DNA from: a virus
Reading direction: 5' to 3' (one strand)
Virus record (IMG/VR): IMGVR_UViG_3300029527_000003
Location: 1 to 42,168 of that record
DNA length: 42,168 bases
Every line of letters starts with the position of its first letter. Positions within the stretch are counted from its first letter, which is position 1. The position numbers were made by a program, and so were the translations under genes. Shown here in pieces: positions 1-34,476 of the stretch. The notes below the pieces were generated by a model, which saw only the letters and a program-made list of their open reading frames with translations, did not search any database and was not told where the DNA came from.

Positions 1-72
1 CTCGAACTAGCCGTACTGGAATAGCCGCTCGAACCAGCCGTACTGGAATAGCCGCTCGAACCAGCCGTACTG
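1..72. repeat. Terminal direct overlap, left copy (identical to 42097-42168)
   Basis: Direct comparison of both window ends gives 72/72 identical bases. The overlap lies inside a 27-bp tandem array, so the register is not unique. Confidence 0.9.
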
Positions 73-5936: not shown

Positions 5937-6533
5937 TTGATGAGCTACTTTACTGCGGAAAAGCTTGGTGTCGCACTGGCGCGGGCCAGAGTCGCGGCAG
6001 GCTTGAGCCAAGTCGACATGGCCCGCCGGATCAACAAGGGAAAGGCTACGATCCAGAGCTGGGAGTGCGGAGCGTCCAGCCCACCAGCTGACAAGATAAT
6101 GGACTGGTTCGAGGCTTGCGGGACTTCTCCGCTCCCCGCCATGCAAGAAATGCTGCACCCAGAACTTTATAAAGAGCCCGTACAGCGCAAATCAGACGAA
6201 GAGCTGGATGAGGCGCTTACAGAATACTTTCGCACAGCGCCGCGAATTGTAAAAGAGATGGTGCTGTTTATCCTTTTGGGCCGACATGGCAGCTATCCAC
6301 CGGCGGTGTTTGCTGAGGTGTGCGCGAATCTGCATACTCCCTTGCAAAACAAGGTATCCGTCTGCGGCCAAATACTGGACAATTACGAGTTCGCCGTGGC
6401 TACAGGAACAGACCCGATTCCGTGGGAAGTCCAGCCTCCGGTGAGTCTGCTGCAGTCGGCATACCAGGCGGGAAAAGAGGCCGCGAAGAGCGGCGAGGCC
6501 GACTATACCGCAAAGCGAGGTGAAGAGCTTTGA
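5937..6533 (+). CDS. XRE-type HTH regulator with a long C-terminal domain, immediately upstream of the integrase
   Basis: HTH segment LSQVDMARRINKGKATIQSWECG. GAGGT lies upstream of ATG 5940 (TTG 5937 in the track). The stop overlaps the int start. Confidence 0.65.
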   Translation: MMSYFTAEKLGVALARARVAAGLSQVDMARRINKGKATIQSWECGASSPPADKIMDWFEACGTSPLPAMQEMLHPELYKEPVQRKSDEELDEALTEYFRTAPRIVKEMVLFILLGRHGSYPPAVFAEVCANLHTPLQNKVSVCGQILDNYEFAVATGTDPIPWEVQPPVSLLQSAYQAGKEAAKSGEADYTAKRGEEL

Positions 6534-7663
6534 AATGCATTCGCGCCTGCTGCCGTCGGGAAATACCGGATGATGCATCTTTTTGCCCATACTGCGGCAA
6601 GAAGCAGCCCGAAGCCGCCCCGCAGCAAAGAAAAAAGCGCCGCCGCCCAAAGGGCAGCGGCAGTGTATATAAGTTGAGCGGGACGAGGTCAAAACCGTAT
6701 GTGGCCCTGACAGCCAAGCGAGACGTTCTGGGGACGTTTGCAACGCCGGGCGAAGCAGTACAAGCGCTGGACGCTTACAACGCCCAGAACACCCCCGCAG
6801 CGCGTCTGAAATGCACTTTTGCGGATGCCTACGCCCAATGGAAAGCGCAGCCCAAATTTGACAAGCTCAGCACTGACATGAAAAAGGGTTATGAGCTGGC
6901 CTATGCAAAGGCTGCGCCGCTGTATGACCGACAGCTCCGGGACTTAAAATCCGCAGACTATCAACAGGTGATTGACCAGATGGTGGAAAAGGGCCTCTCC
7001 CGCAGCTCCTGCGAAAAGCAGCGCACACTTTTCAGCCAGATCTGCGAGTGGGCGATGGCTCAGGACATCATAAACAAAAACTATGCCATGCTCTTGCAGC
7101 TCCCAGCGGCTACAGGCAAGGCAGAGCGCACCTTGACCGCTCAAGAGATAGAGCAAATAAGCAGCCGACAAGACGACCCGAAGCTTGGGCAGACAGCGCA
7201 AATCGCAATGGTGCTGCTCTACACCGGTATGCGTATCGATGAGCTGCTCTCCATGCGCTGCGACGATGTGCATCTAAAAGAGCGGTATATGCAGGGCGGC
7301 GAAAAGACCGAGGCGGGCAAAAACCGCATTATCCCTATTTTGGACCCCATTTATAAAATTATTGCCTTTTGGATGCTTGACAGCGGCTGTGAGTGGCTGA
7401 TACCGTCCAAAGCCGGTACAAAGCTGGACAAGCGCAACGTGGCTACAAAGTTTCGAACCTTGATGCAGGAGTGCCATATAGAGGGAGTGCATCCGCATAC
7501 GCTGCGCCACACGGCCAGCAGCAAGATGGTGGAGTGCGGCCTGGAAAAGACCGCCGTGCAGGCCATCTTGGGCCACAAAAATTTCTCCACCACAGCCAAC
7601 AAGTACGTCTCCCACAATGACCCGGATTATCTGTTGCAGGAAATGCAAAAGATGAAGTATTGA
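6530..7663 (+). CDS. int: Tyrosine recombinase / phage integrase with N-terminal zinc ribbon
   Basis: Motifs GMRIDELLSM (Arg), HTLRHTASS (H-x-x-R) and LGHKNFSTTANKYVS (His...Tyr). The N-terminus is CIRACCRREIPDDASFCPYCGKK. TTG start follows GAGGTG. Confidence 0.9.
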   Translation: MKCIRACCRREIPDDASFCPYCGKKQPEAAPQQRKKRRRPKGSGSVYKLSGTRSKPYVALTAKRDVLGTFATPGEAVQALDAYNAQNTPAARLKCTFADAYAQWKAQPKFDKLSTDMKKGYELAYAKAAPLYDRQLRDLKSADYQQVIDQMVEKGLSRSSCEKQRTLFSQICEWAMAQDIINKNYAMLLQLPAATGKAERTLTAQEIEQISSRQDDPKLGQTAQIAMVLLYTGMRIDELLSMRCDDVHLKERYMQGGEKTEAGKNRIIPILDPIYKIIAFWMLDSGCEWLIPSKAGTKLDKRNVATKFRTLMQECHIEGVHPHTLRHTASSKMVECGLEKTAVQAILGHKNFSTTANKYVSHNDPDYLLQEMQKMKY

Positions 7664-10774: not shown

Positions 10775-11152
10775 TTAGTCCTCCTTGTACCAGTAATAGA
10801 TCGGGCATTCTGCGCCGCTGTCCCAGCTGTCCAGCCAGTCACCGTTGACCACGGCCAGAACATGGCCGGAACACCCCAGCACATACACGCCGTGCGGGTA
10901 CTCCCGGGCAAAATCTGCCACGGTGTAACAGGTGGCGCAGTCCGCCTCCACCATGCGGCGCTTGAATCCGTGCTTTTGGAGGTATGCGCCCCATGTGCGG
11001 TTGGCGCTGGGCATATCGCCGAGAGCAAAGCCGGTCAGCGCCAATCCAATGTAGGCCTGCTCCCAGCTCTGCCCAGTGGCTGCTGCTACCGCGCGCACGG
11101 AGCAATCACCCACGCTGCCCCCGTGGGGGTTGGGGCTGAACTTGTTCCACAT
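10775..11152 (-). CDS. Putative papain-like Cys-His-Asp peptidase-fold protein (cassette gene 1)
   Basis: ATG at 11152 follows GGAGG. Candidate triad residues are GDCSVRA (Cys), CSGHVLAVV (His) and DSWDS (Asp). The assignment is an inference only. Confidence 0.5.
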   Translation of the reverse strand: MWNKFSPNPHGGSVGDCSVRAVAAATGQSWEQAYIGLALTGFALGDMPSANRTWGAYLQKHGFKRRMVEADCATCYTVADFAREYPHGVYVLGCSGHVLAVVNGDWLDSWDSGAECPIYYWYKED

Positions 11153-11236
11153 TGGCGCTTGCCTCCTTTGCGCCCAGTGTAGCAGAGCCGCCCGGCGGGA
11201 GAGACAACGAAGGTACAACGAAGGACAAAAAAAGAT

Positions 11237-11292
11237 AGCATAAATAATTTATTTTCTCAAATTTACTGTTGACAAAATAAATTATTTATGCT
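11237..11292. repeat. 19-bp perfect inverted repeat flanking and overlapping divergent promoters
   Basis: AGCATAAATAATTTATTTT (11237-55) and AAAATAAATTATTTATGCT (11274-92), separated by 18 nt. Confidence 0.85.
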
Positions 11293-11297
11293 ATAAT
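11269..11297 (+). promoter_or_regulatory. Consensus sigma70 promoter for the plus-strand module
   Basis: TTGACA (11269-74), 17 nt, TATAAT (11292-97). The mirror-image element on the minus strand reads TTGAGA, 17 nt, TATCTT. Confidence 0.7.
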
Positions 11298-11341
11298 AAG
11301 AGTGTCAAGAGGAACACCCAAACAAAACGGAGGAACGAACG

Positions 11342-11746
11342 ATGAAAGCTTACAACCTGCACGAGATCATGAGCAATGCCTGGGCAATGTACCGCAAGTG
11401 GGTCGCACCTTACAAGTACAATCACAGCCGTATCCCCAGCTGCTACACTTTTGCAAGTGCTCTCAAGCAGGCTTGGGCCGCTGCAAAGACCGCTGCCAAA
11501 AAGGTCGCAGCCGGCATCGTTCGCATGCACTACAGCCAGTACAAGGCCGAGTACAGCAAGTGCCAGACCGTCGAGGGCAGCTACGACAAGGCCACCAAGA
11601 CCATCGAGGTCATGACCAAGGCTATCCGCACCTTTGAGCGTCCCGCATATACCGCAGCTCGTACCTCTCGCCGCCCCAGCGTGACCGCCATCCGCGGCCT
11701 CTGCCCCCGTTGCCACACCTACTGCTATGGTGACTGCATGGCATAA
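11342..11746 (+). CDS. Basic protein with C-terminal CxxCxxxCxxxC motif
   Basis: RBS GGAGGAA. The protein is K/R/A-rich and ends in GLCPRCHTYCYGDCMA. Confidence 0.65.
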   Translation: MKAYNLHEIMSNAWAMYRKWVAPYKYNHSRIPSCYTFASALKQAWAAAKTAAKKVAAGIVRMHYSQYKAEYSKCQTVEGSYDKATKTIEVMTKAIRTFERPAYTAARTSRRPSVTAIRGLCPRCHTYCYGDCMA

Positions 11747-11779
11747 TCCACACACTCAACTATAAGGAGGACAACAACA

Positions 11780-12052
11780 ATGGCTAAGTTTTATGATGGC
11801 AGCAAGCTCCTGAGTATTAAAATGACCCACACCCGCACCGGCATCGACTTCGAAAACGACTTCTTCGAGGTCGGCGGCCTCGAGTACAACGCCGATCTGG
11901 GCGCTTACAAGGTCGAGGACGTCGAGTATCTGGCCGACTACGCCAAGAGCTACGCCGACGGCACCAACGGCGACATCGACTACACCGTCGATGAGGACGG
12001 CAATGTCGTGGTCCCCGACTGCACCGTCGATTATGACATCGAGGTGATGTGA
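11780..12052 (+). CDS. Highly acidic small protein (possible DNA mimic or anti-restriction candidate)
   Basis: RBS AAGGAGGA. Hand count gives about 21 D/E versus about 6 K/R in 90 aa. Confidence 0.65.
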   Translation: MAKFYDGSKLLSIKMTHTRTGIDFENDFFEVGGLEYNADLGAYKVEDVEYLADYAKSYADGTNGDIDYTVDEDGNVVVPDCTVDYDIEVM

Positions 12053-13575
12053 TGTTGTACTCATGGGCGCTCATTGACCCGGACGGCAAGCGTCACGAGG
12101 TCGATGATCTGGCAAAGTGGAGCCAGGACAATGTAAAATTGTTTTTCCCGGATGCCGCACCGGACAACGCCGCAGCCCGGATCGCCGAAGGCGTCCAGAT
12201 GCTGTGGTACGCGCTCAAGCACCCGGAAAGGCCTCACGGGCTGCACACTTATAAAGGGTGGACGCTTGCAGAGCCTCCGCAGCCCAAGGCACCAAAGGCT
12301 AAAGATCCCAAAAAGCCGCTTGCCGACCGGTTAATAGGCAAAACTTTTGGCGATCTCTCCATCGTCGGCACGGCACCGGCGAAGATCATGCCCAACGGAT
12401 ATAAATGCACAATGGTCGTCGTGCATTGCGCTCTTTGCGGCAATGACAGGATCATGTCCTACAACTCCTTAAAAATATCAAGGAGCTGCGGCTGCCAGCG
12501 AGGACGGCGCAGGAAAGACGGACTCGCCCCGCAGCCCGTCACGCCCTCCAGACAGCCTCCCTATGATCAGGCGCCTGCCGACCATAAAGGCAAATCACTA
12601 AAAAAGATCTGCGCTATCTGCGGCAAGCCTTTTTATGCCTCTCCCAGTGACGTAAACCAGCAATGCTGCTCAAAAAAATGCAGCGCTGCCCTACGGGTAA
12701 AAAATGGTCATATCAACAACGCTGCATGGTCGGATGAGGCAAAGGCCCGCCGGGCAGCAGACCCGGAGATCCAGGCACGTATGCAGACATTGCAATCCAT
12801 AGGCACTTCGGCGGCTCTAGAGTTGCCCGCAGGTCAAAAAGGGCCGCAAAATCGTGAGGCTCTTGTCTGGCAACTGATCGACCCGGACGGCAACACCCAC
12901 AAGGCGGTCAATCTGCTGGACTGGGCGCGTAAAAATCATCTGCTGTTTTTTGACGAGGACGTCCCGGAGGACGTCGCCGCAAAAAGGATTGCAGCAGGAT
13001 TCAGGGCGATCGCCACGTCGATCCGTGGGACTCGCTTAAAATCACGCCCGGCAGCGAGCTACAAGGGATGGATGTTGGCCGGGCTTCCCACGCCCAAAAC
13101 GACAGATGACGATAACTTTGACAATGTGGAGGATACCATGCGCAAAATAATCAACGGCTCTCGCTACAGCACCGATACCGCAAAAAAGATCGCCCACTGG
13201 GAGTCCGACCAGGACTACACCAGCTTTACCCACTGCGAGGAGACGCTTTACCGCACCAAGGCAGGCAAGTGGTTTATCCACGGCACCGGCAACGCGGCCA
13301 CTGTGTACGCCGTCCGCCGCGGCGACGGATGGACGGCCCCCGGCGAGCAGATCGTGCCGCTCTCCGAAGAGGTCGCGCGAATCTGGGTGCTCGAGCACCT
13401 TGGCGAGGAACAGTGCGACGCCATCTTTGGCACCGGAAGTGAGGACACAAAGGATGTGCAGGCTACGGTCTACATCCCGGGTCCGCTCGCCGAAAAGATG
13501 GCAGCTCGGATAGATGCAGAGCAGTGCAACCGAAATGAGCTTATCCTGCAGGCGCTGCGGGAATATCTCAAGTAA
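12049..13575 (+). CDS. 508-aa multidomain protein: duplicated N-module, Cys clusters, conserved globular domain, C-terminal ribbon-helix-helix
   Basis: Internal repeats at 12064-12288 and 12868-13098 share W.LIDPDG..H...L..W...N..LFF...P...AA.RIA.G...YKGW.LA..P.PK. Also present are FGDLSIVG...CALCGN...SCGC and CAICGKPF...CCSKKC. The C-terminus VYIPGPLAEKMAARIDAEQCNRNELILQALREYLK is CopG-like. Confidence 0.7.
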   Translation: MMLYSWALIDPDGKRHEVDDLAKWSQDNVKLFFPDAAPDNAAARIAEGVQMLWYALKHPERPHGLHTYKGWTLAEPPQPKAPKAKDPKKPLADRLIGKTFGDLSIVGTAPAKIMPNGYKCTMVVVHCALCGNDRIMSYNSLKISRSCGCQRGRRRKDGLAPQPVTPSRQPPYDQAPADHKGKSLKKICAICGKPFYASPSDVNQQCCSKKCSAALRVKNGHINNAAWSDEAKARRAADPEIQARMQTLQSIGTSAALELPAGQKGPQNREALVWQLIDPDGNTHKAVNLLDWARKNHLLFFDEDVPEDVAAKRIAAGFRAIATSIRGTRLKSRPAASYKGWMLAGLPTPKTTDDDNFDNVEDTMRKIINGSRYSTDTAKKIAHWESDQDYTSFTHCEETLYRTKAGKWFIHGTGNAATVYAVRRGDGWTAPGEQIVPLSEEVARIWVLEHLGEEQCDAIFGTGSEDTKDVQATVYIPGPLAEKMAARIDAEQCNRNELILQALREYLK

Positions 13576-13585
13576 ACAAAAAAAT

Positions 13586-13620
13586 CCCCCGATGCTCCAA
13601 ACGGAACACCGGGGTTTTTT
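13586..13620 (+). terminator. Rho-independent terminator of the plus-strand module
   Basis: Stem CCCCGATG/CACCGGGG (one mismatch), followed by TTTTTTG. Confidence 0.65.
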
Positions 13621-13682: not shown

Positions 13683-13976
13683 TCACAAATTCAGCATTTT
13701 ATCAATGCCTTTCAGCCGGTAGCCTATCGCTGTCCGGCTGTAATGTGTCTGCGCTGCAATCTCCGGCAGCGGGAGCCGCTCAACGTACCGCAGTAAGGCT
13801 ATCTTACGGTCTACCCTCCCAAGCGGTGCGCTTTTGATCGCGGCGGTCATCCGCTGTCTGTCAAGTCCTCGCAGCGCAGCGGGCAGCACTACGCGAGCCG
13901 CCGCCACAGGCAGCACCGAGCCAAAAAGGCTGCGGCAGCTGTCCGGCGTTGCGCACCATAGTGCCAAGCGCGGCAA
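13683..13976 (-). CDS. Sigma-70 region-4-like HTH protein; N-terminal extent uncertain (ATG at 13850 gives 55 aa)
   Basis: The C-terminal segment LGRVDRKIALLRYVERLPLPEIAAQTHYSRTAIGYRLKGIDKML matches a region-4 pattern. The upstream 40 aa look non-protein-like. No clear RBS. Confidence 0.4.
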   Translation of the reverse strand: MPRLALWCATPDSCRSLFGSVLPVAAARVVLPAALRGLDRQRMTAAIKSAPLGRVDRKIALLRYVERLPLPEIAAQTHYSRTAIGYRLKGIDKMLNL

Positions 13977-14458: not shown

Positions 14459-14831
14459 GATTGGTCACTCCTTTTAACAGATAGTTGTCGATGTCGGCGC
14501 GGCTCTTCTGCATCCCCTCGCGATTGTTGCCGGACAGCTGCGCGTCCAGCAGATTGCGCACCCCGTCGAGGGTCAGACGGCTCACCTCGTCGATTTCTTC
14601 AAAGCGGCGCAGGTCACGGGCAAGGGCTTGTGTGTGCTGAAGCTGGCCCTGCTCCAAGGTGCCGATGCGCTTGTCCAGCTCATCCAGCCGCTTGTTCTGC
14701 GCGTTGTCCGGCTCCTGCGCCTTTTTGATGTACTTGTGGATAATTTCCAGCACCTTGTCGATGGTGATGGCTGCAGCGCACAGGCTGCCCAGGATGCCCA
14801 GTACCCACAGCAAAGCTTCTTTTTCGCTCAT
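14439..14831 (-). CDS. Membrane-anchored coiled-coil lysis-associated protein
   Basis: N-terminal TM ALLWVLGILGSLCAAAITI plus a coiled coil. It lies between the endolysin and the holin, and its start overlaps the endolysin stop. Confidence 0.55.
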   Translation of the reverse strand: MSEKEALLWVLGILGSLCAAAITIDKVLEIIHKYIKKAQEPDNAQNKRLDELDKRIGTLEQGQLQHTQALARDLRRFEEIDEVSRLTLDGVRNLLDAQLSGNNREGMQKSRADIDNYLLKGVTNHGSTGN

Positions 14832-15631
14832 GCGCCCTCCCGGAGACGGGTCAGACCCTTCTTGCGGATGATTTTGGGATAGTTGATCTCTGTCACGTTG
14901 AGGTCTGCGTTGCCCGTGATGCCCGGAACGCTGCCCTTGCTGGTGTGCTGGTGGGCGTTGTAGGCAAAATCGACCTTGGGGGTCTTGCCGGTATAGTCCG
15001 CCAGCCAGACGTCATAAGGCTTGAGGGCCGCACCGCCCACATAGAGACGCGCCTTTGCGAAGCTGGTGTAGGTGTACAGCTGGGCGTAAAAGCCCATCTG
15101 CTCTACCTCATGCAGAGCATAGGCGGTCAGGTCAGTCAGGCTCTGCTTGTCCAGATTGCCCAGCCGGTTGTCCTCCACGTCCACCGCCACAGGCAGGGTC
15201 AGCTCCTTGCCCCGCAGCGCCTGCCGCAGCAGGGCGAGCTCTGCATCAGCCATGGCCTCGCTGGTAGCGTAGGTGTAGTAGTACACGCCCACGTCCAGCC
15301 CGGCAGCCCGGGCGTTGCGGTAGTTGGTCTCAAAGGTCGGGTCGATGTACAGGCCGTCTGCCCGCTTGGAGAGCTTGCGGTTGGTGCTCACGGTCTTGAG
15401 CATTGCCCCCTTGTAGCCCGCCGCAGCCACCTGCGCCCAGTCGATAAGGCCCTGATACCGGCTCACGTCCACAAAGCGATAGGGCGGCGCACCGGTCCAG
15501 CCGGTCACAGCCTCTGCCCCGGGGGGTTCGGGAGGCTCCGGTGCGGGCTTTGCCTCTTCGGCATCCTGCTTGTCCCCGGGGCCAAAGATGGCCCGCACCA
15601 GCTTTTCCAGAAGTTGCAGCAGCTTACCCAT
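14828..15631 (-). CDS. Endolysin, GH25 muramidase
   Basis: FVDVSRYQGLIDWAQVAAAGYKGAMLK...GVYYYTYA...LPVAVDVE is a typical GH25 signature. A Pro-rich linker follows the N-terminal helix. Confidence 0.85.
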   Translation of the reverse strand: MGKLLQLLEKLVRAIFGPGDKQDAEEAKPAPEPPEPPGAEAVTGWTGAPPYRFVDVSRYQGLIDWAQVAAAGYKGAMLKTVSTNRKLSKRADGLYIDPTFETNYRNARAAGLDVGVYYYTYATSEAMADAELALLRQALRGKELTLPVAVDVEDNRLGNLDKQSLTDLTAYALHEVEQMGFYAQLYTYTSFAKARLYVGGAALKPYDVWLADYTGKTPKVDFAYNAHQHTSKGSVPGITGNADLNVTEINYPKIIRKKGLTRLREGA

Positions 15632-15804: not shown

Positions 15805-15999
15805 TTACTTGTTGACGGCGGCATCCAGCTCGCACAGCGAGTCTTCGATGGTCGCCATCCGCTCTTCCGATGCCATGTCCTGCTCACACAGGGCGTCCTC
15901 AATGGCGGCCACCTGCTCCGGGAGCTTCCGCAGCTTCTCTTTTTCGGCCTGCTTCTTATGCTGCTCCTTCAGGCTCTGCTTGTTGTAGTATACGCTCAT
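15805..15999 (-). CDS. Small coiled-coil protein
   Basis: The ATG overlaps the upstream stop (ATGA). Sequence: MSVYYNKQSLKEQHKKQAEKEKLRKLPEQVAAIEDALCEQDMASEERMATIEDSLCELDAAVNK. Confidence 0.5.
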   Translation of the reverse strand: MSVYYNKQSLKEQHKKQAEKEKLRKLPEQVAAIEDALCEQDMASEERMATIEDSLCELDAAVNK

Positions 16000-17318
16000 C
16001 CGATAACACCTCCGATCATGGTGATATTGCCGCCGACGCCGGAAGCTCCTCGGGCAATCGTCACCTTGTAGTTGAATGCAAAGCCCCGGGCGGCGGTCTT
16101 GTTGGTAAAGACGTGGTGTACAAAAGCCCGGCTCTCGCCGCGCTGGATGTCGGTACAGTTCTCCCACACGGGGCTGTCGTCTAAGGCGTTGTTGGTCATT
16201 TCCACGCTGAGGCTCAGGTCTGTCGGCAGGGTGCCTTCCAGCGTCATGGAGGCTACCGTAATGGTGTCGTCTGCCGTCAGCGGCTGGGCCAGCGAGAGGA
16301 CGGCACGGGTCACGTTTTTGGTAAAGGTAGCGGTCCACTCTGTCGTGGTCTTTCCGTCGTCCGCTTCCAACACCAATTTGTTCTCCCCGTTGAGGACCTG
16401 CTGGAACAGCGCCTTCTCGCTCAGGCGCTGTACCGTGAGTTCGGTGCCGGAGGCCACGTTTTCGCGGACGGCCATCTCCACACCGTTCACCTTTTCGACG
16501 ATGCGCATGGGGTCTCCGTCGCCGTCGGTCACGGTGTAGGACAGAGTAAACGGCTCGTTCTTCTCGCCCAGTGCCACGCCGCTCTCGCCCACATCGGAAG
16601 TGATTTCCGGCGGCTGGTTTTCCGTAGGGAAGCCGTCTTTGTCGATGTACAGCGTCTCCGGCAGGGTGAAACAGGGAAGATAGCCGATATTATAATTGTA
16701 AGCCTGTTCAAGATTGAAACTAGCCCCACTTGCGCTACTTACGTACATACCATTGGCAAAGTAATATATACTATCGCCGTCGCTATCGGTACGGTGGTCC
16801 GTATAGGTTGGTCCAGGGCTTCTTGTCCAAAAGGCACCATAAGAGCGTATGGCTGCTAATCGAGTACGTGCCGCAGTAGAAAGAGTCGTACCGTCCGAAT
16901 AGTTATAACTCCCAAAGCGCGATACCCCCAATTCCACTGACGAGATTGCAAAAAAGCTAAAGCCAGCACTGGTCACATCCATATTATAACTAGGACTGCT
17001 GTTGCCAAGAGGATTATGCAAGCTGTTAACATGGATTTTCGTACTCCCAATCCAGCTTTTCACAGTCGTTGTGAAGTTGGCCAAATAAGTATTCCTATAA
17101 TATGAACACTCCAAACAGCTGGGCCAATAAGAAGCGTCGGACCTACTATTTCCTGTTCGTGTGCCTTTCGTCGCCGGACTCTCCCGGCAAAACATCGTCC
17201 GCCCTTTGCCGTTCAGGCTGGACTCATAGTTGTGGGCCAGCACGTAAAACTTGACTTTTGTGCTGCCTTCCATCAGGTATACAAAGCCGTCACCAACGGC
17301 TAAGTCTTTGATCTGCAT
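15996..17318 (-). CDS. Tail fiber / receptor-binding protein candidate with an AT-rich N-terminal module
   Basis: Last large tail gene. The N-half contains FFAISSVELG...AFWTRSPG...YLPCFTL, which I recall as a DUF6273-like pattern. The C-half is beta-rich and Ig-like. Confidence 0.6.
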   Translation of the reverse strand: MQIKDLAVGDGFVYLMEGSTKVKFYVLAHNYESSLNGKGRTMFCRESPATKGTRTGNSRSDASYWPSCLECSYYRNTYLANFTTTVKSWIGSTKIHVNSLHNPLGNSSPSYNMDVTSAGFSFFAISSVELGVSRFGSYNYSDGTTLSTAARTRLAAIRSYGAFWTRSPGPTYTDHRTDSDGDSIYYFANGMYVSSASGASFNLEQAYNYNIGYLPCFTLPETLYIDKDGFPTENQPPEITSDVGESGVALGEKNEPFTLSYTVTDGDGDPMRIVEKVNGVEMAVRENVASGTELTVQRLSEKALFQQVLNGENKLVLEADDGKTTTEWTATFTKNVTRAVLSLAQPLTADDTITVASMTLEGTLPTDLSLSVEMTNNALDDSPVWENCTDIQRGESRAFVHHVFTNKTAARGFAFNYKVTIARGASGVGGNITMIGGVIG

Positions 17319-27409: not shown

Positions 27410-27486
27410 TGGTGCCGCCTGTGGGGCTTGAACCCACGGCCCCCGGATTACAAATTCGGTGCTCTGCCAACCTGAGCTAAAGCGGC
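27410..27486 (-). tRNA. tRNA-Thr (anticodon UGU), CCA encoded
   Basis: GCCGCTT TA GCTC AGGTTGGCA GAGC A CCGAA TTTGTAA TCCGG GGGCC GTGGG TTCAAGC CCCAC AGGCGGC A CCA. There is one A:C mismatch in the anticodon stem. Confidence 0.8.
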
Positions 27487-34234: not shown

Positions 34235-34403
34235 CGCCACCACCTCTCTAAACTCAGACAAAAGAAAAACCGCCCGGAAAATCCGAACGGTCAGAATATC
34301 AAAATAAGAGGCCTTGCTTGTCGGGTTCAAAGCCTCTGCGTCCAGAACTTTCGCGGCCGGATGCCCCGCTATTGCACTCCCCGCTCTCGTCAGATCATGC
34401 AAG

Positions 34404-34476
34404 CACTCCCGGCAGGACTCGAACCTGCAACATGCGGTTTTGGAGACCGCCGCTCTACCACTTGAGCTACCGGAGT
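34404..34476 (-). tRNA. tRNA-Trp (anticodon CCA), no encoded CCA end
   Basis: ACTCCGG TA GCTC AAGTGGTA GAGC G GCGGT CTCCAAA ACCGC ATGTT GCAGG TTCGAGT CCTGC CGGGAGT G. There is one G:G mismatch at acceptor pair 6:67. Confidence 0.75.

Follow-up and report, generated by a model that had tools for sequence, protein, structure and literature searches.

Genes and control elements of the operon

The IMG/VR virus record IMGVR_UViG_3300029527_000003, positions 1 to 42,168 (here called the window, meaning the whole 42,168-nt stretch analyzed), is the genome of a temperate siphophage. An operon on its + strand is sandwiched by two - strand blocks, the integrase-proximal genes on one side and the lysis cassette on the other. 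An earlier note, made from the sequence, had described this operon as a discrete module of three genes running from a consensus promoter to a terminator. Both boundaries hold: the promoter matches the consensus at 12 of 12 positions, and the terminator is a hairpin flanked by A and T runs. We find that in the third open reading frame (ORF) a 2-bp deletion has fused, in frame, two genes that stand apart in related phages. We call these g3a and g3b; the latter encodes a protein whose family carries a domain of the ribbon-helix-helix (RHH) type at the C-terminus. The features of the operon are:

11235-11260: left inverted-repeat arm, the putative upstream operator copy, with core AAATAATTTATTTT, ending 13 nt before the -35
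11269-11297 (+ strand): sigma-70 promoter, TTGACA-17-TATAAT, with a TG extended -10
11269-11294: right inverted-repeat arm, spanning the -35, the entire spacer and the start of the -10
11342-11746 (+ strand): g1, 134 aa, isoelectric point (pI) 9.8, C-terminal end ...CPRCHTYCYGDCMA; an AcrIIA3-like N-terminal half and a conserved middle/C-terminal domain ending in the tail CPRCHTYCYGDC
11780-12052 (+ strand): g2, 90 aa, pI 4.05
12049/12052-13575 (+ strand): gene 3 ORF, the fused g3a-g3b, 508/507 aa
12052-13137 (+ strand): g3a part of the fused ORF, about 365 aa, basic, multidomain, without a nuclease
12064-12291 (+ strand): g3a module copy 1
12319-12498 (+ strand): g3a CapR-like zinc ribbon, residues 91-150, Cys4
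12604-12687 (+ strand): g3a FCS/treble-clef zinc ribbon
12862-13095 (+ strand): g3a module copy 2
13128-13140 (+ strand): retained Shine-Dalgarno sequence GGAGGA and internal g3b ATG; site of the fusing 2-bp deletion
13138-13575 (+ strand): g3b part, 145 aa
13138-13428 (+ strand): g3b beta-rich N-domain, residues 1-97
13453-13572 (+ strand): g3b RHH, after a flexible linker
13587-13620 (hairpin 13587-13614; both strands): bidirectional intrinsic terminator, common to the operon and the convergent lysis operon

Every gene either possesses a GGAGG-type ribosome-binding site or overlaps the stop codon before it. For gene 3, the ATG at 12052 is the likelier start, and it overlaps the stop of g2 (ATGA, 12049-12052). 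The basic character of g1 and the acidic character of g2 (21 Asp/Glu versus 6 Lys/Arg) had been read correctly. Eight promoter-like sites are observed in the region against 2.1 expected, and that at 11269-11297 is the single perfect one. The inverted repeat, first reported as 19 bp, in fact has arms of 26 nt each that are 96% complementary. Its 18-nt core is found at just these two sites in the 42-kb window, where 0.01 would be expected. The folding energies of the terminator hairpin (-18.9 kcal/mol on the + strand and -27.5 kcal/mol on the - strand) indicate that it is bidirectional, with the stronger arm serving the convergent lysis operon.

We also observe signals for the opposite direction. 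A promoter-like site on the - strand (11281-11308; TTGACA-16-AATAAT, 11/12) overlaps the right repeat arm and is aimed at the divergent gene at 10775-11218; it is kept solely in close relatives. As - strand RNA, the 26-nt repeat (11228-11300) would give a terminator-like hairpin of -26 kcal/mol with a T-run. Thus, the repeat may control both directions. Immediately left of the promoter region, at 11204-11224, the decamer ACAACGAAGG occurs twice in tandem and is followed by an A-run. This tandem decamer is also present upstream in the compared loci L001, L007, L013, L016, L050, and L056 (L-numbers denote compared loci throughout), even where operator and cargo differ. It may represent the 5' region of the divergent - strand gene or the edge of an insertion hotspot.

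The fusion of g3a and g3b is evident from close relatives, in which g3a ends with ...NTEDTPCAK exactly where the window protein has ...VEDTMRKIING.... Their contigs carry four genes, of 134, 90-91, 369 (or 490), and 145 aa, the final two of which overlap by 13 nt. DNA alignment shows that 2 bp are absent from the window and from many other contigs, changing GGAGGATACACCATG to GGAGGATACCATG (TACACC to TACC) and leaving one frame. An exhaustive phmmer search of 1.84 billion representatives returned more than 100 independent cluster representatives, 140-146 aa long, that align from their own residue 1 to ORF position 364 (M364). The fused protein represents 198 member sequences, and is present in L007-L010 and in about 15 IMG/VR contigs; thus, the fusion is a circulating allele and not an assembly error. 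A GGAGGA box 4 nt before the g3b ATG is kept across all lineages. Since box and ATG are both retained, free g3b can probably still be translated from the fused message. The RHH tail previously ascribed to gene 3 is upheld for the family, while its place in a single protein is not: it belongs to a normally free-standing regulator.

A further structural variant occurs in L031 (4711-5430) and, at the same coordinates, in L039. There, g3a is reduced to one W-x-L-I-D-P-D-G module, both zinc ribbons are gone, and the product is a 239-aa module-g3b fusion. This collapse apparently arose by recombination between the two repeats of g3a, and indicates that the internal duplication generates structural variants.

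The putative regulator g3b and its proposed operators

The four-gene set recurs at the same site, between integrase-proximal genes and lysis cassette, in many related prophages, so that the genes do co-occur elsewhere, as the earlier note had asked. The ORFs of the operon are intact, translationally coupled and 80-100% identical across dozens of contigs. The sole isolate-genome match in a single-protein scan with g3b is a cut-off prophage remnant in Faecalibacterium prausnitzii UT1, which, together with a GC content of 55-58%, points to Faecalibacterium as the likely host genus. Of the elements in the operon, g3b is conserved most widely, and is found as the last gene, at 41-63% identity, behind differing upstream genes:

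L011: an acidic 132-aa protein and a ribbon/module protein
L016: a 75-aa and a 111-aa protein
L019: an acidic 131-aa protein
L021: a 475-aa CapR/ribbon/AP2 protein, beside a tRNA
L026: a g2-like protein and a 199-aa ribbon protein
L047: g1 and a helix-turn-helix (HTH) protein
L053 and L059: g1 and a ribbon/AP2 protein, with g2 after g3b

Where members of the g1 family are present, g1 is the first gene past the promoter in all loci inspected. Relatives of g1 are then followed by a CapR-like protein with an AP2 domain in L050, L053, L059, and L062. In L064, a different protein with the same Cys-rich tail is likewise followed by a protein of this type.

The C-terminal RHH of g3b is supported at the family level. 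Pfam RHH_1 is matched by 18 of the 45 aligned relatives (best E = 3.9e-8), although the window copy alone is below threshold. The family profile matches the RHH chains CopG, MazE, and EndoAI, with antitoxins (EndoAI/MazE, ParD-like) ranking best, and family members match PHROG families labeled "Arc-like repressor." In the predicted model (pLDDT 91.7), an N-domain of six strands and two helices is followed by a low-confidence linker, and then by an extended segment and two helices. Where the N-domain occurs in other proteins, a DNA-binding domain nearly always accompanies it, usually an RHH and once a Ros/MucR zinc finger, and some of these proteins carry further C-terminal extensions. A weak structural resemblance of g3b to Pur-alpha (Foldseek E = 0.46; TM 0.26/0.46) was distrusted.

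We find that the operator co-varies with the regulator. With promoters aligned on the -35, all lineages with an RHH-bearing g3b have a near-consensus promoter of the TTGACA-17-TATAAT type, with a TTATTT-type element at a fixed position in the spacer. A second TTATTT-type copy lies 12-14 nt upstream of the -35 in all of these lineages; the spacing and core of the upstream copy in the window are thus also kept in other g3b-bearing lineages. The beta-strand is the DNA-reading part of RHH proteins, and operators group with it as follows:

AAATAAnTTATTT: beta-strand QATVYIP; window, L016, and L026
AAAATATTATTTT: beta-strand VSV(L/I)(V/L)P; L019, L011, and L047
AAATGATTCTTTT: beta-strand QATVRIP; L046, L053, L059, and L060

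In L007, there are substitutions in both repeat arms, one of them complementary. Modules at the hotspot that lack the RHH (L012, L023/L025, L050/L056, and L062) have unrelated palindromes at the same promoter positions. These encode other regulators, either HTH proteins or a small RHH protein, and L025 has only the N-domain of g3b. An apparent counterexample was L011, which has g3b and yet a different operator at its first promoter. This was resolved by an internal promoter, with an AT-rich element, directly upstream of its acidic/zinc-ribbon/g3b unit. Because operator type follows the RHH beta-strand, and modules without the RHH also lack the element, the RHH of g3b would be expected to recognize the repeat and to control its own promoter. 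On this comparative evidence, we consider it probable that g3b autoregulates the operon.

An RHH repressor on a strong promoter within the late region is also the layout of P22 immI (arc-ant), where such a promoter is under an RHH autorepressor. The operon might accordingly be a secondary immunity region of the Arc/Mnt-Ant type, its cargo being antirepressors or developmental regulators of this or other prophages. The layout matches that of arc-ant in its RHH autoregulator, its operator overlapping a strong promoter and its place among late genes, and the "Arc-like repressor" matches of the g3b family also speak for this. However, the cargo is unrelated to Ant and resembles none of the known antirepressors, the Bro-N/ORF6C protein of the window lies elsewhere (1278-2075), and no second, Mnt-like repressor was identified. 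In addition, the cargo varies widely on a similar phage backbone, which is atypical for a core developmental switch. We therefore regard this explanation as improbable.

Cargo proteins

The first ~65 residues of g1 match PHROG 8305, a family of unknown function (E = 6.7e-9). They also match the NCBIfam equivalog model of AcrIIA3 (NF033948; E = 1.8e-6, 28 bits) over profile positions 1-64 of 119; the curated cutoff of this model is 70 bits, with a full-length match needed. All six divergent g1 relatives from IMG/VR match NCBIfam AcrIIA3_fam (best E = 1.1e-10), the extent of the match being given here for g1 alone. Thus, g1 appears to be a distant relative of AcrIIA3 through its N-terminal half, and is not a family member by the curated criterion. 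It also aligns, at 31% over 86 aa (E = 2e-5), with orf1 of Streptococcus phage P7602, a gene that adjoins acrIIA6 and acrIIA25. Among 50,697 phage records, there was no match to g1 by tblastn or to the operon module by blastn.

The C-terminal half of g1 is invariant within the family, including C74 and the tail CPxCHTYCYGDC. The tail (11702-11746), comprising the last ~14 residues (G-x-C-P-(R/K)-C-H-T-Y-C-Y-G-D-C), recurs in near-invariant form behind at least four mutually unrelated N-terminal domains, the phages being from different metagenomes:

L064, 3797-4111
L065, 3860-4153
L066, 3755-4228
L067, 2853-3332
L068, 3767-4045
L069, 3422-4051
L070, 1733-2362

In five of the five loci inspected (L064-L068), the tail gene is immediately downstream of a near-consensus promoter. 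The spacing of the tail (CX2CX3CX3C plus His) suggests a metal-binding knuckle. The tail looks like a portable module, whose role is unexplained. The possibility that it is the precursor of a ribosomally synthesized and post-translationally modified peptide was set aside, as there is no maturase-like gene in the module or its relatives.

A toxin-antitoxin or addiction module, with g3b as RHH antitoxin and autorepressor and one cargo protein as the toxin, could account for some of these features. In the original description, AcrIIA3 was reportedly toxic in Escherichia coli. The best matches of the g3b profile are, as noted, antitoxins, and P7602 orf1, to which g1 aligns, is toxic in E. coli (PMC8934645). 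Yet no known toxin domain was found in g1, g2, or g3a, and the same g3b N-domain stands beside completely different cargo, with no cognate pairing. Furthermore, the RHH of g3b is C-terminal behind a folded domain, not N-terminal with a disordered toxin-binding tail. Such a module seems very improbable to us.

The second cargo protein, g2, has a strong net negative charge, as in DNA mimics, and this charge is the one observation that speaks for mimicry. Its homologues reach down to about 52% identity. The predicted model of g2 is a compact alpha/beta fold (pLDDT 95.9; pTM 0.81), whose Foldseek matches in BFVD are all uncharacterized gut-virome proteins. Various other small acidic proteins (pI 4.0-4.6) occur at the same hotspot elsewhere: L011 1613-2011, L064 3264-3575, L012 7494-7802 and 5408-5584, and L050 4401-4895. 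In L011, the acidic cargo protein is a homologue of orf3 from a Streptococcus pyogenes Aca11 locus (E = 1e-13, with 31% across the entire length). A pool of acidic cargo common to phages of gut Clostridia and Streptococcus is thereby suggested.

The third cargo protein, g3a, appears to be a DNA binder built from homing-endonuclease-type modules, with four putative DNA-binding modules. The internal duplication noticed previously is real: the W-x-L-I-D-P-D-G...Y-K-G-W modules at residues 6-81 and 272-349 are true repeats, with 40% identity and a pairwise E of 3e-16. Module copy 2, together with the preceding C-x2-C-G...C-C-S-x2-C ribbon, corresponds to a large family of free-standing ~170-aa proteins. 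The profile of this family matches nearly the whole of PDB 9KJA chain A (E = 3.4e-13), a 111-aa chain deposited as "HNH endonuclease." The label seems to have been inherited from earlier annotation, as a chain of this length has no room for both an HNH domain and the module. A literature search found no publication on 9KJA, returning one unrelated paper, and tblastn of its sequence against phages gave two uninformative matches. Between the modules, the CapR-like region matches PF21817 below the gathering threshold (15.9 versus 24.2 bits, E = 0.015; spacing CxxC-16-CxC). It has weak pairwise similarity (E = 4e-4) to both ribbons of Streptococcus orf2, discussed below. A search with the whole of gene 3 gave 591 matches at E ≤ 1e-10, the g3a and g3b families together. 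In distant relatives, parts of g3a are swapped, or supplemented with further ribbons and a C-terminal AP2 domain.

These homologies raise the question of whether g3a is a functionless, nuclease-less relic of a homing endonuclease, with the neighboring small ORFs incidental. PHROG and PDB labels of "HNH endonuclease" for the zinc-ribbon and module parts would fit such decay. However, the matches are limited to the DNA-binding parts: those to PHROG 374/1271 cover the zinc-ribbon stretch only (profile positions 190-287 of 617), and no Pfam nuclease domain (HNH or GIY-YIG) was found in g3a. The unit of zinc ribbon and module is also a large family of intact free-standing proteins, and the operon itself is intact, coupled and conserved, as described above. 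A decayed remnant is thus a highly improbable explanation.

Proposed relation to anti-CRISPR operons, and the genomic setting

We consider that the operon is an RHH-autorepressed accessory ("moron"-type) operon of a temperate Faecalibacterium siphophage, of the kind in which anti-CRISPR genes (acr) are controlled by an anti-CRISPR-associated regulator (aca), a reading that we hold to be somewhat better than even. The near-perfect sigma-70 promoter would drive g1, g2, and gene 3. The g3b RHH, as a dimer or tetramer, would bind the two AT-rich copies, 13 nt upstream of the -35 and in the -35/-10 spacer, and shut the promoter after enough protein has accumulated. The cargo would comprise g1, with its AcrIIA3-like N-domain and Cys-rich, probably metal-binding tail; g2; and g3a, a nuclease-less and putatively sequence-specific DNA binder. 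All three are candidate inhibitors or re-programmers of host defense or of competing elements. Even with g3a and g3b joined by the 2-bp deletion, free g3b should still be made from the ribosome-binding site and ATG that remain.

This reading is suggested by the strong promoter, the operator in and around its spacer, the small and rapidly exchanged cargo, and the conserved terminal repressor, which is sometimes fused to the cargo. Of the marks of acr-aca operons, both a promoter overlapped by an inverted repeat and a conserved regulator gene beside variable cargo are found here. An anti-defense function of the cargo is about as likely as not, and a specifically anti-CRISPR function is doubtful. 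The anti-defense theme of the earlier note is plausible, and nothing links the genes to replication or packaging. In contrast, its statement that the combination could not be assigned to a known system was too strong, given the acr-aca architecture, the distant relationship of g1 to AcrIIA3, and a pairing already known in Streptococcus.

Published systems provide several parallels. In Streptococcus, acrIIA3 is in an operon with an AP2-domain protein, and a TTGACA-17-TATACT promoter is overlapped by a repeat bound by Aca11 (PMC12658196, PMC12282945). The supplementary sequence of this AP2 protein, orf2, contains two CapR-like ribbons. The present operon resembles the Streptococcus acrIIA3-orf2(AP2) and acrIIA25.1-aca11 operons (PMC12658196, PMC12282945, PMC8934645) in its TTGACA-17-TATAnT promoter overlapped by an inverted repeat, which is bound there by a small dimeric repressor. 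It also shares with them an AcrIIA3 or AcrIIA3-like first gene, followed by a CapR-like zinc-ribbon protein (with AP2 also in g3a relatives), and an accessory gene pool of orf1-like and orf3-like proteins. It differs in its regulator, an RHH protein with an additional N-domain, whereas the Streptococcus regulators are the HTH proteins Aca11/13. Furthermore, g1 matches only the N-terminal half of AcrIIA3 and has a Cys-rich tail, the place of AP2 is taken in g3a by 9KJA-like modules and an FCS ribbon, g2 is without a counterpart, and the host is Faecalibacterium.

RHH proteins are already known in this role. Aca14 is an RHH-type anti-defense regulator, shown experimentally (bioRxiv 10.64898/2026.07.27.740549), AcrIE10 is a bifunctional RHH-Acr protein (PMC13530269), and Acr-Aca fusions are known (PMC12282945). 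As with Aca14 and AcrIE10, the RHH of g3b is proposed to bind an AT-rich inverted repeat over the promoter of its own, putatively anti-defense operon, and, as in AcrIE10, it is joined to a second domain. Unlike in these proteins, it is C-terminal, behind a ~100-aa beta-rich domain, and DNA binding by g3b is inferred from comparative data.

Several points weigh against an acr-aca reading. None of the components reaches the curated threshold of any anti-defense family: g1 has 28 of the 70 bits needed for AcrIIA3, over the N-terminal half of the model only, while g2 and g3a match no known inhibitor, and the cargo thus holds no verified one. PADLOC, which holds models of defense and not of anti-defense, gave no match for any of the four proteins. 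The g3b N-domain is without a Pfam family or a significant Foldseek neighbor in the PDB. Likewise, no significant relative of the g2 model was found by Foldseek in the PDB, known mimics and Acrs included (best E = 0.94), so that the suggestion of a DNA mimic goes back to composition; because mimics are structurally diverse, this lack of a match does not exclude mimicry. When assayed against three Cas9s, orf2, the CapR/AP2 protein of Streptococcus, did not act as an Acr (PMC8934645). The mechanism of AcrIIA3 is uncharacterized, a 2026 preprint reporting that Cas9 cleavage was inhibited, and DNA binding was not, in a cell-free transcription-translation (TXTL) assay. Finally, co-occurrence and operator conservation are not fully independent, because the lineages are related phages sharing one insertion hotspot, and promoter composition might in part account for the AT-rich spacer.

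The nature of g3a also allows for a lysogenic-conversion or superinfection-exclusion moron. Here, g3a (possibly with g1 and g2) would be expressed from the prophage and repress genes of incoming phage, satellite or host, as PLE CapR does on the ICP1 capsid operon, with g3b just limiting expression. CapR homology domains are domesticated homing-endonuclease DNA binders serving as repressors (PMC8096241). Like CapR of Vibrio cholerae PLE (PF21817, PMC8096241), g3a has a Cys4 zinc ribbon of homing-endonuclease origin and is without a nuclease, and with CapR there is a known case of this type of protein acting as a repressor in phage conflicts. The operon's own promoter and terminator, its orientation opposite to the late genes, its place near the integrase and lysis end, and the four putative DNA-binding modules of g3a are also consistent with this role. 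On the other hand, the CapR match is sub-threshold, its spacing differs (CxxC-16-CxC versus CxxC-24..26-CxC), and g3a has three further domains, including a module homologous to PDB 9KJA chain A. No target site was identified, the operator 18-mer being found nowhere else in the phage, and AcrIIA3, orf1, and orf3 connect the operon with acr-type loci. We therefore judge this explanation unlikely. Each of the four rivals (exclusion moron, immI-like region, toxin-antitoxin module, and decayed homing endonuclease) fits fewer observations than the acr-aca reading.

A further proposal can be made, tentatively and with low expectation. An AcrIIA3-like or Cys-tail protein and a nuclease-less homing-endonuclease-type DNA binder, in which CapR-like ribbons are combined with AP2 or 9KJA-like modules, might form a conserved two-component system of counter-defense or inter-element conflict in phages of Firmicutes. 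The DNA binder would be directed at an immune locus of the host or at a rival element, with the small protein acting as its partner. In such a system, the CPxCHTYCYGDC tail might serve as a portable handle for binding metal, with the g3b N-domain as a new effector or sensor attached to the RHH. The proposal rests on the pairing in Faecalibacterium phages and in the Streptococcus acrIIA3-AP2 operons. The pairing of AcrIIA3-like and CapR/AP2 proteins, noted once in Streptococcus, is widespread, which suggests that the DNA-binding partner matters for function.

Systems of this kind are known. What is new is the g3b family, with its new domain joined to an RHH, as a widespread putative regulator in phages of gut Clostridia, the operator code, the polymorphic g3a-g3b fusion, the generality of the AcrIIA3-like/CapR-AP2 pairing, and several uncharacterized cargo families. 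The very recent finding of RHH-type Aca proteins is extended to a family with an additional conserved domain. In the human gut, Faecalibacterium ranks among the most abundant bacteria, and next to nothing is known about the means by which its phages counter the immunity of their hosts. The g3b protein and its AT-rich repeat provide a concrete regulator-operator pair, which might be used, like Aca proteins, as bait for guilt-by-association discovery of anti-defense genes in gut Clostridia. Uncharacterized families with a confident fold or a solved homologue number four here, namely g2, the N-domain of g3b, the 9KJA-like module, and the Cys-rich tail.

The surroundings of the operon in the window include:

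5937-6533 (+ strand): CI-like HTH gene
6530-7663 (+ strand): integrase
Run ending at 11218 (- strand): small genes of unassigned function
13683-13976 (- strand): small protein with a weak sigma-70 region-4-like HTH (Pfam E = 0.0013)
14828-15631 (- strand): GH25 endolysin; holin-like, tail and tape-measure genes are likewise on the - strand, right of the operon
15996-17318: DUF6273 protein
27410-27486 and 34403-34476 (- strand): tRNA genes, Thr(TGT) and Trp(CCA)

The region-4-like small protein, also found in L012 (8897-9133), is conserved at the end of the lysis-side operon, as its final gene just past the shared terminator. Three related prophages carry a reverse-transcriptase (RVT_1) gene between tail-fiber and lysis genes (L007 9950-11146, L008 5823-7019, and L011 8479-8970), which suggests a diversity-generating retroelement there. 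In the window, such an element was rejected, as the ORF at this position encodes the DUF6273 protein. On the F. prausnitzii UT1 chromosome (L028, 3960-4174 and 5267-5894), the prophage remnant is broken inside g3b, of which the RHH part remains together with the terminator. This remnant abuts a ClpB-like host gene, and a HicA/HicB-like ORF pair, judged by eye, lies about 1 kb off.

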